NCBI RefSeq assembly: GCF_045037415.1
Contig: NZ_CP173440.1
Reading direction: 5' to 3' (one strand)
Source of the DNA: Escherichia coli
GTDB lineage: Bacteria > Pseudomonadota > Gammaproteobacteria > Enterobacterales > Enterobacteriaceae
DNA: 64,000 nucleotides
Shown here: positions 13,570 through 15,545 of the stretch, in pieces
Layout: each line of letters begins with the position of its first letter
How positions within the stretch are numbered: the stretch's first letter is position 1
Notes under the pieces: generated by a model
What the model saw: only the letters and a program-made list of their open reading frames with translations
Told to the model about the DNA's origin: nothing
Databases searched by the model: none
Position numbers and translations under genes: made by a program

Positions 13570-13995
13570 CCTGTTGTTTCAGTCGGAGGAAAGTCTATCA
13601 GTAAAGAGAATGAGAGATCAAAGTGGACATTTTAATTGAGCCGGATAACGGACATTTCAATTGAGCTTTGACAAATGCTGTCAGCACAAAGCGTTATTGT
13701 CGTCTCAGCACAATTCACACGCGTCGTGTACGCTAAGCCTTCATTTTGCTCAGCACAGGACCGCGATCTTATATTGGCTAGACAAAGTCTGTAACTCCAA
13801 TATTCTAATGTCACTTTTGGGGCTGCGGATGTTTTCCTGGACTGTTATGTTGTGATCCCAAGATGCTGCCGGTACTTCACCGGACTCATTGCACCTAATG
13901 ATAGTAGACTGGCCCCATGAATCTCCAGACAGTTGGTATAACTTAAGTTAGTGATAGTCTTAATACTAGTTTTTAGACTAGTCGTTGGAGTCCGG

Positions 13996-14361
13996 ATGAT
14001 TGATGTTTTAGGTCCAGAGAAGCGCAGACGGCGCAGTGTTCAGGAAAAAATCGCCATTGTTCAGCAGAGCTTTGAACCCGGTATGACCGTCTCGCTGGTC
14101 GCCCGGCAGCATGGTGTTGCCGCCAGTCAGCTGTTCCTGTGGCGCAAGCAGTATCAGGAAGGCAGTCTTACCGCCGTTGCCGCGGGTGAACAGGTTGTGC
14201 CCGCGTCGGAACTGGCATCGGCAATGAAGCAAATTAAAGAACTGCAGCGCCTGCTGGGCAAGAAAACTATGGAAAACGAGCTGCTGAAAGAAGCCGTTGA
14301 ATATGGCCGCCAAAAAAAGTGGATAGCGCACGTGCCCTTGTTGCCGGAGGATGGCGAATAA
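13996..14361 (+). CDS. insC: IS2 transposase OrfA (InsC)
   Basis: [13 protein letters not shown]…[34 protein letters not shown] matches IS2 OrfA. Confidence 0.9.
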
Positions 14362-15223
14362 GCCTTGTCAGCCGTTGCCTCCGGGTCTCACGTGCGCAAC
14401 TGCATGCCATGGCTCGTCGGTCGAAGAGCTGGCAGGATCGTCGACGCAAGCGCAAGCCTGATGATACTGAAGCGCTGGACCGTATCCAAACCGTTATTGG
14501 CGAGCTGCCAACGTATGGTTATCGTCGGGTGTGGGCACTGCTGCGCAGACAATCAGAAACTGACGACATGGCCATTATCAATGCCAAACGCGTATACCGC
14601 ATCATGCGTCAGAATGCGCTGCTGCTTGAGCGTAAACCTGCAATACCGCCCTCGAAACGGGCGCATACAGGGAAAGTGGCTGTAGGGGAAAGTAACCAGC
14701 GGTGGTGCTCTGACGGCTTCGAGTTCAGGTGTGATAATGGCGAAAAACTGCGTGTAACGTTCGCACTGGACTGCTGCGATCGTGAAGCCCTGCACTGGGC
14801 GGCCAGTACCGGTGGATATGACAGCGAAACCGTGCAGGACGTCATGCTGGGTGCGGTGGAACGACGCTTCGGCAGCAGCCTGCCAGCATCCCCAGTAGAA
14901 TGGCTGACAGACAACGTTCAGCTTATCGTTCTCATCAGACGCGTCAGTTCGCCAGAATGGTAGGACTGGAGCCTAAACATACGGCGGTACGCAGCCCGGA
15001 AAGCAACGGGATGGCAGAGAGCTTCGTCAAAACGATGAAGCGCGATTACATCAGCATCATGTCGAAGCCCGACGGGTTAACAGCGGTAAAGAACCTTGCG
15101 GAGGCCTTCGAACATTATAACGAATGGCATCCGCATAGTGCGCTGGGATATCGTTCGCCACGGGAATATCTGCGGCGGCGTACCAGTAATGGGTTAAGTG
15201 ATAAAAAGTGTATGGAAATATAG
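14319..15223 (+). pseudogene. insD: IS2 transposase OrfB (InsD), split by a frameshift
   Basis: OrfB-like sequence is divided between ORFs 14319..14963 and 14900..15223 in different frames, beyond the normal programmed frameshift site. Confidence 0.65.
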
Positions 15224-15239
15224 GGGCCAATCCAGATAG

Positions 15240-15545
15240 CTTGATACGTTTCTCGTTATACCAGCGTATGTACCTGTCCAGGAAGCAGATAAATTTTTCC
15301 AGCGTGATACCAGCCCAGTTTCTGCCATAGAACATTTCGTTTTTGATACGCCCGAAGAAGCCTTCACACGCAGCATTATCCGACGAGCATCCTTTGCGCG
15401 ACATGGACCTTATAAGTCCGGATGTGTTGATACGATCGAGCCAGCCCGGCCACCGGTAATGGCCACCACGATCGCTGTGTATTACCGGTTTATCATGTTC
15501 GTTGAGCGTATCGAGTGCTTCATAGAGCATCGTATTCACCAGCGT
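15240..15545 (-). pseudogene. IS3-family transposase OrfB fragment, interrupted by the IS2 insertion
   Basis: …HSDRGGHYRWP…SMSRKGCSSDNAACEGFFGRIKNEMFY… is an IS3-family integrase-core C-terminal region. The reading frame continues on the other side of IS2 (13843-13904: …LGAMSPVKYRQHLGITT). Confidence 0.6.

Follow-up and report, generated by a model that had tools for sequence, protein, structure and literature searches.

The window analysed here, a 64-kb stretch of Escherichia coli DNA, very probably carries a dead ISEc36-type insertion sequence lodged in a stump of ISKpn38 on a Klebsiella pneumoniae virulence plasmid of the pLVPK/pK2044 type. The element begins with TAGACTGGCCCC and ends with GGGGCCAATCCA. 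The 28-mer at its left end occurs once in the window, with 0 occurrences expected by chance, indicating that this is the only copy of the ISEc36-like element in the 64 kb. The full nested unit spans 13819-15613 (Table 1). The preliminary description had located the nest at 13843-15545, an interval that runs approximately from the stop codon to the ORF start and stops short of the outer limits of the unit.

Table 1. Coordinates of the ISEc36-like insert and the sequences that enclose it, in window positions
Feature	Position	Strand	Details
Tentative remnant of the outer terminus of an IS1202-group (ISKpn21-like) inverted repeat	13790-13818	+	29 nt; adjoins ISKpn38 end
ISKpn38, 3' end	13819-13904	-	86 bp, 100% identical; last 19 codons, stop, right terminal repeat
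Target-site duplication, left copy	13900-13904		GATAG, 5 bp; adjoins element start
ISEc36-like insertion sequence, defective (IS3 family, IS2 group)	13905-15234	+	1330 bp; 93.1-93.6% identical to ISEc36 copies
IRL	13905-13946	+	42 bp, begins TAGACTGG; aligns to reverse complement of right end; 2 mismatches to ISEc36 IRL
orfA, intact	13996-14361	+	121 aa; HTH_Tnp_1 (PF01527, E = 1.7e-18); IS2-type 'repressor TnpA'
Programmed -1 frameshift heptamer A AAA AAG, intact	14313-14319	+	In orfA/orfB overlap; also in IS2 and ISEc36
orfB, 5' part to premature stop	14319-14963	+	Pfam HTH_21 and first part of rve
Lesion	14916	+	Single G left of ancestral GG (codon G308, GGT); only indel relative to ISEc36
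orfB, 3' part, now out of frame	14917-15223	+	E342 codon at 15017-15019; rve_3 region
IRR	15194-15234	+	41 bp, ends AATCCA-3'; 41/41 identical to ISEc36 IRR; CA-3' terminus as in IS2
Target-site duplication, right copy	15235-15239		GATAG, 5 bp; adjoins element end
ISKpn38, internal fragment, truncated at 15613	15240-15613	-	374 bp, 99.5% identical; transposase codons ~367-491

The GATAG duplication adjoins the element directly at both ends, just as the preliminary description had stated. The chance of a matching 5-mer alone is 1/1024. The decisive test for insertion is the alignment of the excised site to intact ISKpn38. Specifically, when the insert and one GATAG are removed from the window, the remaining sequence aligns without a gap over 460 bp, with 99.6% identity, to an intact copy that PGAP annotates as ISKpn38 family (L006:2001-2460). 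The empty site is found in the intact ISKpn38 of other plasmids (H174-H182), where the flanks are contiguous (99 + 374 = 473 bp) and GATAG is present once. The same excision in silico yields an uninterrupted minus-strand frame that ends in RWYNEKRIKLSLGAMSPVKYRQHLGITT and a stop codon. Across the junction, RWYNEKRIKLS is followed by LGAMSPVKYRQHLGITT and the stop, which matches the C-terminus of the 510-aa ISKpn38 transposase exactly and bears out the earlier observation that the interrupted IS3-family frame runs on across the insertion. IS-rich plasmid regions are often recombination mosaics, and around this site several fragments of IS elements are present and the left flank is variable; one could therefore suppose that the GATAG pair is coincidental and that recombination between separate copies of IS elements, not a simple insertion, produced the arrangement. 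However, recombination between different copies would normally leave flanks that do not match, whereas excision of the insert with one GATAG restores a colinear, ungapped ISKpn38 together with its reading frame, and we regard a recombination origin as negligibly probable.

The host of the insertion is a remnant of ISKpn38. Intact ISKpn38 is 1599 bp long (L006:862-2460; ends taken from the junctions in L006 and L007) and has a single ORF of 510 aa. The stump corresponds to its last 460 bp, and the first 1139 bp are gone. The C-terminal transposase sequence and the right end are those of intact ISKpn38, but the left end is missing. The stump carries two substitutions, a CAG>TAG nonsense mutation (codon 15584-15582) and a D>Y change (15524), and the 1330-bp insert divides it in two. 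The original stop of the transposase remains as TAA at 13847-13845 on the minus strand. PGAP annotates the stump as 'transposase; internal stop; incomplete', Pfam recognizes the C-terminal part of an rve-type transposase in the minus-strand flanks, and the joined remnant scores 169.5 bits against the NCBIfam IS3 family transposase model (cut-off 160). Thus, the preliminary description was right that the insertion was precise, hit an IS3-family transposase gene and duplicated GATAG; the interrupted element itself is a 460-bp stump with its own nonsense mutation. The IS3-family element had also been called the older of the two. The nesting gives the order of insertion at this locus, ISKpn38 first and the ISEc36-type element second. 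It does not give the age of the lineages, because live ISKpn38 copies share 99.6% identity with the stump.

The insert has the architecture of the IS2 group. Specifically, we expected of a member of this group a length of ~1.3 kb, imperfect inverted repeats of ~41/42 bp with an IRR ending in CA-3', orfA and orfB overlapping in -1 register at a slippery site of the A6G type, and a target duplication of 5 bp; the insert has a length of 1330 bp, terminal repeats that align, the A AAA AAG overlap and the 5-bp GATAG duplication. In IS2, the inverted repeats are imperfect and measure 42 bp and 41 bp, and transposition follows a two-step circle pathway (PMC3299598); an A6G slippery site and a CA-3' end of IS2 have likewise been described, and the catalytic triad of IS2 OrfAB consists of D240, D306, and E342 (PMC3219604). 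The A7G found at 14312 raised the question of a frame fusion of natural origin, comparable to the engineered A7G of IS2. The run arises by a C>A substitution, not by an insertion, it is present in ISEc36, and the frames still overlap in -1 register, so a fusion of this kind was rejected.

The preliminary description had named the insert IS2, a label that does not hold. The insert is 81.5% identical in DNA to the IS2A copy of E. coli K-12 (L003:1761-3091), with a net length difference of 1 bp, while it is 93.1% and 93.6% identical, with one 1-bp gap, to two ISEc36-type copies, L004 (PGAP: ISEc36 family) and L005, which served for comparison in place of the ISfinder reference entry. The proteins divide in the same way. 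OrfA matches IS2A at 116/122 residues and ISEc36 at 121/121, and the repaired OrfB matches IS2A at 249/301 (82.5%) and ISEc36 at 287-289/301 (95.0-95.7%, a borderline value). Under the ISfinder rule, isoforms share roughly >90% DNA identity and/or >95% transposase identity. For membership of ISEc36 we required DNA identity of >90%, transposase identity of ~95% or higher, and matching ends and length, and the insert falls within these limits; identity to IS2A is well below what a near-identical IS2 copy would have. ISEc36 itself is listed in a review as 'IS2 group, IS3 family' (PMC12816380).

Comparison with the two relatives gives the same picture. ISEc36 and the insert have identical terminal bases, slippery site and IRR, and the reference copies of ISEc36 are likewise flanked by 5-bp duplications (GATCC, GTCAT). 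The ISEc36 reference is 1331 bp long, and the sole indel that separates the insert from it is the lesion in orfB. Other than that, ~7% of the nucleotides are changed, nearly all synonymously (dS 0.15-0.4), IRL has two substitutions, and the insert, unlike ISEc36, lacks a G in codon G308 and hence a full-length OrfAB. K-12 IS2 (insC/insD, IS2A) has in common with the insert the 42/41-bp inverted repeats running from TAGACTGG to AATCCA, the A AAA AAG -1 site, and the 5-bp target duplication, and with its G-restored form a 409-aa OrfAB with D240/D306/E342; the insert is unlike it in a divergent block at element positions 500-600, where identity is 65%.

A copy of E. coli IS2 itself would share the length class (1330 vs 1331 bp), the terminal bases, the gene layout and the 5-bp duplication. 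Some public annotations of the insert do read 'IS2 element protein', 'IS2 repressor TnpA' or 'InsD for IS2', and its OrfA scores 232.5 bits against the NCBIfam 'IS2 repressor TnpA' model (cut-off 229). However, the repaired OrfAB reaches 596.3 bits against the NCBIfam 'IS2 transposase TnpB' model and misses the cut-off of 597 by 0.7 bit, PGAP names the close intact relatives 'ISEc36 family', and the identities of 81.5% (DNA) and 82.5% (OrfB) to K-12 IS2A stand against 93% (DNA) and 95-100% (protein) to ISEc36. We consider it very unlikely that the insert is IS2. Judged by its sequence, the insert has an IS2-like architecture but falls in the ISEc36 branch of the IS2 group, which makes the usual label 'IS2' imprecise.

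The orfB frameshift reported in the preliminary description is present and genuine. The gene is split into ORFs at 14319-14963 and 14900-15223 by a 1-bp deletion (AACGGTTC to AACGTTC); where K-12 IS2 and ISEc36 have GG, the insert has a single G. PGAP accordingly annotates the insert as 'IS3 family transposase, frameshifted'. The missing base lies in codon G308, two codons past the catalytic D306 (GAC, 14910-14912). When OrfAB is rebuilt through A AAA AAG, a product of 409 aa is obtained from IS2A, from the two ISEc36 copies and from the G-restored insert (4/4), and each of these products has D240, D306, and E342. In the insert as it stands, the 5' part of orfB codes for D240 (14712-14714) and D306 and then for 15 out-of-frame residues, and the deletion in codon 308 puts the E342 codon out of frame. 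The ORF at 14900-15223 retains the rve_3 match (Pfam, E = 5e-19). All three triad codons are present, but the contiguous D..D..(35)..E triad is interrupted: the longest frameshift product ends at 322 aa, with its last 15 residues aberrant. A second recoding event that rescues orfB was considered and rejected, as no slippery motif is found in the 14900-14963 overlap.

The 322-aa product would keep the DNA-binding region, D240 and D306 and would lack E342 and the C-terminal catalytic part, and it should be unable to catalyse strand cleavage or transfer. The position of the lesion within the IS2 DDE triad thus suggests that catalysis is lost, and the earlier view that the copy is probably no longer autonomous agrees with E342 lying out of frame and with an OrfAB that ends at 322 aa. 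With both inverted repeats, orfA and the slippery heptamer still intact, the copy is non-autonomous yet undegraded.

The preliminary description had singled out a sequencing error in orfB as the result that would overturn it, and had proposed that other copies be checked for the same frameshift. The frameshift is shared by ~580 plasmid records (580-584) that hold a near-identical copy at >=99% identity; these counts derive from summary tables and from the top-ranked rows among the ~580. An identical 1330-bp copy is found in pLVPK (NC_005249.1), in pK2044 (NC_006625.1), and in several hundred virulence plasmids of K. pneumoniae, and a 100% identical copy is found in E. coli transconjugants that bear those virulence plasmids. 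A 241-bp query with the G restored has no 100% match among 72,556 plasmids, and the matches listed are all at 99.6% over a 240-bp span. In an exact look-up against ~15 billion proteins, the repaired products (409, 301, and 271 aa) are absent and the truncated products of 214 aa and 184 aa occur on at least 1000 and at least 999 contigs, respectively, under names that include 'hypothetical protein LV177 [K. pneumoniae CG43]' (pLVPK LV177). In 100,044 species-representative genomes, the exact 44/45-mer of the lesion site has 0 matches in either form, with the additional base or lacking it, and this set thus contributed no independent genomic copies.

Among 5.8 billion protein clusters, the nearest intact matches are ISEc36-family transposases with 96% identity. 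Three of these proteins (P0002, P0003, and P0005; 96%) were examined as possible repaired versions of the insert and were set aside: they differ from it at scattered positions and are ordinary members of the ISEc36 family.

Single-base indels are a common type of error, and an error of sequencing or assembly in an element that is really intact would produce a split gene of this kind. However, the run concerned is merely GG, with no long homopolymer, and the same 1330-bp sequence recurs in ~580 independently sequenced records from many laboratories and years. Together with the missing G-restored match and with repaired proteins that are absent where truncated ones are abundant, this excludes the proposed refutation, and we attach almost no probability to an artefact.

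The frameshift came late in the history of the copy. Compared with ISEc36 (Nei-Gojobori), dN/dS is 0 in orfA (22-24 synonymous and 0 non-synonymous differences), 0.09-0.12 in orfB upstream of the lesion, and 0.03-0.06 in orfB downstream of it. These low ratios indicate that the 7% divergence built up under purifying selection and that the frameshift followed, consistent with the 100% identity among the plasmid copies. On this evidence, inactivation was late, with no decay detectable since.

The insert shows no sign of movement. At least 80% of the unit at 13700-15800 is held by 582 plasmid records, and the near-identical copies number 580-584. As the count of contexts equals the count of copies, every copy lies in one context. 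The representative plasmid NZ_CP083992.1 carries an ISEc36-type copy that is 96.4% identical to ISEc36 and is free of the 1-bp deletion; an IS110-family element interrupts this copy, whose first 35 bp are missing. Further IS2-group fragments of 459 bp and 71 bp are present, and no intact IS2-group transposase is found on the whole of NZ_CP083992.1. An autonomous IS would be expected to have its own transposase and signs of movement, and here there is no intact sibling and a single context.

A defective copy could still be moved in trans by an intact ISEc36 or IS2-group transposase elsewhere in the cell. The ends of the insert would allow this, IRR being identical to that of ISEc36 and IRL differing at 2/42 positions, and intact ISEc36 copies are common in plasmids of Klebsiella and Enterobacter. 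IS3-family transposases act preferentially in cis, however; no near-identical daughter copy was found outside the one context (582 contexts, 580-584 copies), and the exact 44/45-mer of the site is absent from the species-representative genomes. ISEc36 is reportedly involved in mobilising a virulence segment of a pK2044-like plasmid (PMC12816380), which also speaks for mobilisation in trans; on balance, we consider mobilisation of this copy unlikely. We judge the insert to be an immobile fossil that appears to have been inherited vertically and fixed in the plasmid lineage.

From 13671 to ~22000, the window is essentially identical to pLVPK, and it is more divergent at 23-31 kb. The left flank of the nested unit varies between plasmids. 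To the left, at a distance of 116 bp, the window contains a complete ISKpn21 (11396-13673; 2278 bp) flanked by an AATGC duplication; pLVPK and two other plasmids lack this copy. Next to the end of ISKpn38, the 29-nt putative remnant of an IS1202-group repeat (TGTAACTCCAATATTCTAATGTCACTTTT) matches the IRL of ISKpn21 (TGTAATGGCTCAATAGTAATGTCCGCCTG) at 16/29 positions ungapped and at ~20/29 gapped. In L006 and L007, ISKpn38 begins exactly 29 nt inside the IRL of ISKpn21. A nest of three layers, produced by IS elements with a specificity for other IS elements, is a conceivable though doubtful extension of the locus. Within it, ISKpn38-type elements may target a position 29 nt inside the terminal repeats of IS1202-group (ISKpn21-like) elements, and a breakpoint in the plasmid of ATCC 13883 would mark a past end-mediated rearrangement by an ISEc36-like copy that was then active. 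The observations cited for three layers are the diverged repeat at 13790-13818, ISKpn21 in L006 and L007, and K. oxytoca plasmids at 86% identity.

The ATCC 13883 plasmid has a private rearrangement and no ISEc36-type insert, and its ISKpn38 breakpoint is located 1-5 nt from the insertion point. This variant may reflect a more complex history of the locus. The DNA at 15614-15788 (175 bp, from the ISKpn38 break to hemB) matches virulence plasmids only and has no Pfam or NCBIfam match. It has no similarity to DUF6904, the passenger protein of ISKpn21. In ATCC 13883, this segment runs on as an 87-aa ORF. Within 13600-15900, promoter-like sites number 4 against 2.4 expected from shuffled sequence and terminator-like sites number 1 against 2.1 expected, both at background level; the scan of this interval gives no sign that the insert drives or blocks neighbouring genes.

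These results suggest a history of the locus in four steps. First, ISKpn38 would have inserted on the minus strand downstream of the plasmid hemB. Second, the ISEc36-type element would have entered the 3' part of the ISKpn38 transposase gene and duplicated GATAG, presumably by the route of the IS2 group, namely minicircle copy-out followed by paste-in with staggered cuts; by homology, the transposition pathway was probably that of IS2. Third, either before or after the second step, deletion of the first 1139 bp of ISKpn38 would have left the 460-bp stump, which would also have gained its stop codon. Finally, one G would have been lost from codon G308 of the ISEc36-type orfB.

The feature is already known, being annotated in RefSeq by PGAP as a frameshifted pseudogene and present in hundreds of public records. 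Its biological weight is small. Large enterobacterial plasmids routinely carry nests of one IS within another and transposase pseudogenes with frameshifts. The plasmid that was checked carries no intact IS2-group transposase, so any ISEc36-mediated mobilisation of virulence segments from plasmids of this kind must use other copies. Being stable and confined to a single context, the invariant 2.1-kb unit of ISKpn38 stump, dead ISEc36-like copy and hemB marks the pLVPK/pK2044 virulence-plasmid lineage and could be used for detection by PCR or k-mers.

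The nest, that is, the ISKpn38 remnant carrying the defective ISEc36-like element, lies 116 bp from a complete ISKpn21 on its left and directly adjoins a gene cluster on its right, the coordinates of which were obtained by alignment to pLVPK (L008). The plasmids pLVPK, NZ_CP083992.1, and LR134257.1 lack the ISKpn21 insertion and have the uninterrupted sequence ...ACTAATGCTGTCAGC at the site; thus, the ISKpn21 in the window is a variable insertion and probably a recent one.

Features flanking the nest in the window
Feature	Position	Strand	Details
ISKpn21	11396-13673		Complete; ISNCY family; 2278 bp
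AATGC duplication	11391-11395 and 13674-13678		Flanks ISKpn21
ISKpn21 transposase	11493-12896		467 aa
DUF6904 gene	12925-13569	minus	Passenger gene of ISKpn21; 214 aa
Gene cluster, part 1	about 15789-35200		hemB, dihydroorotase, M14 peptidase, ThrRS-like gene, DUF1460, carbonate dehydratase
Gene cluster, part 2	about 15789-35200		folE2, dksA paralogue, CobW/ZigA GTPases, two Fur-family repressors, hisI

The cluster resembles a zinc-starvation (Zur-type) paralogue island. Divergence from pLVPK amounts to 2-12% per kb across window 23-31 kb, whereas the flanks of this stretch are near-identical, which suggests, as judged from the alignment, a recombined segment. Moreover, window 62651-64000 matches the CobW-family GTPase/Fur-family repressor region of pLVPK (L008:30453-31802) at 97.6%. 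Because that pLVPK region also aligns near 24-26 kb of the window, part of the island is duplicated inside the window.

The 2.1-kb nested unit (ISKpn38 stump, dead ISEc36-like copy, and hemB), otherwise invariant, is split into two pieces over 2878 bp in NZ_CP095255.1 (47417-50294; plasmid-search match H144). The annotation beneath the split unit is an IS1-family transposase, and an additional IS has inserted into the same nest. The truncated 214-aa, 184-aa, and 88-aa products are also found on contigs of 5.5-5.8 Mb (clusters 1-3 of the protein look-up), so in some strains the nest region of the plasmid has apparently been integrated into the chromosome or assembled together with it. Among the records with a truncated product, one is labelled Nocardioides hankookensis and looks like contamination.

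K. pneumoniae ATCC 13883 (NZ_KN046820.1, L014:5000-6100) and NZ_CP040994.1 have a variant of the locus that lacks the ISEc36-like element, and this type is common to just three plasmid records. Specifically, the hemB spacer is followed by 186 bp of unique DNA and a 35-bp ISKpn21 fragment and then by the last 82 bp of ISKpn38, the fusion point in ISKpn38 being 1-5 nt from the GATAG insertion point. The equivalents of window 13758 and 13773 are separated by a 412-bp ISNCY transposase remnant.

Another ISEc36-type copy, not in the window, resides on the virulence plasmid NZ_CP083992.1 (52550-55011). Its identity is 96.4% to ISEc36 but only 92% to the window copy; an IS110-family element interrupts it, and its first 35 bp are missing. 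Because it does not carry the 1-bp deletion in orfB codon G308, the two copies are independent acquisitions.

In the window (13790-13818), and in L006 (2461-2489) and L007, two unrelated plasmids with intact ISKpn38, the right end of ISKpn38 is placed within an IS1202-group terminal repeat, at an offset of exactly 29 nt. The repeat is a diverged version in the window, and the IRL of ISKpn21 itself in L006 and L007. A flank of IS1202-group-repeat type was reached in eight of the nine intact ISKpn38 copies sampled (H174-H181). This pattern suggests either site-specific targeting of IS1202-group repeats or the spread of one composite.
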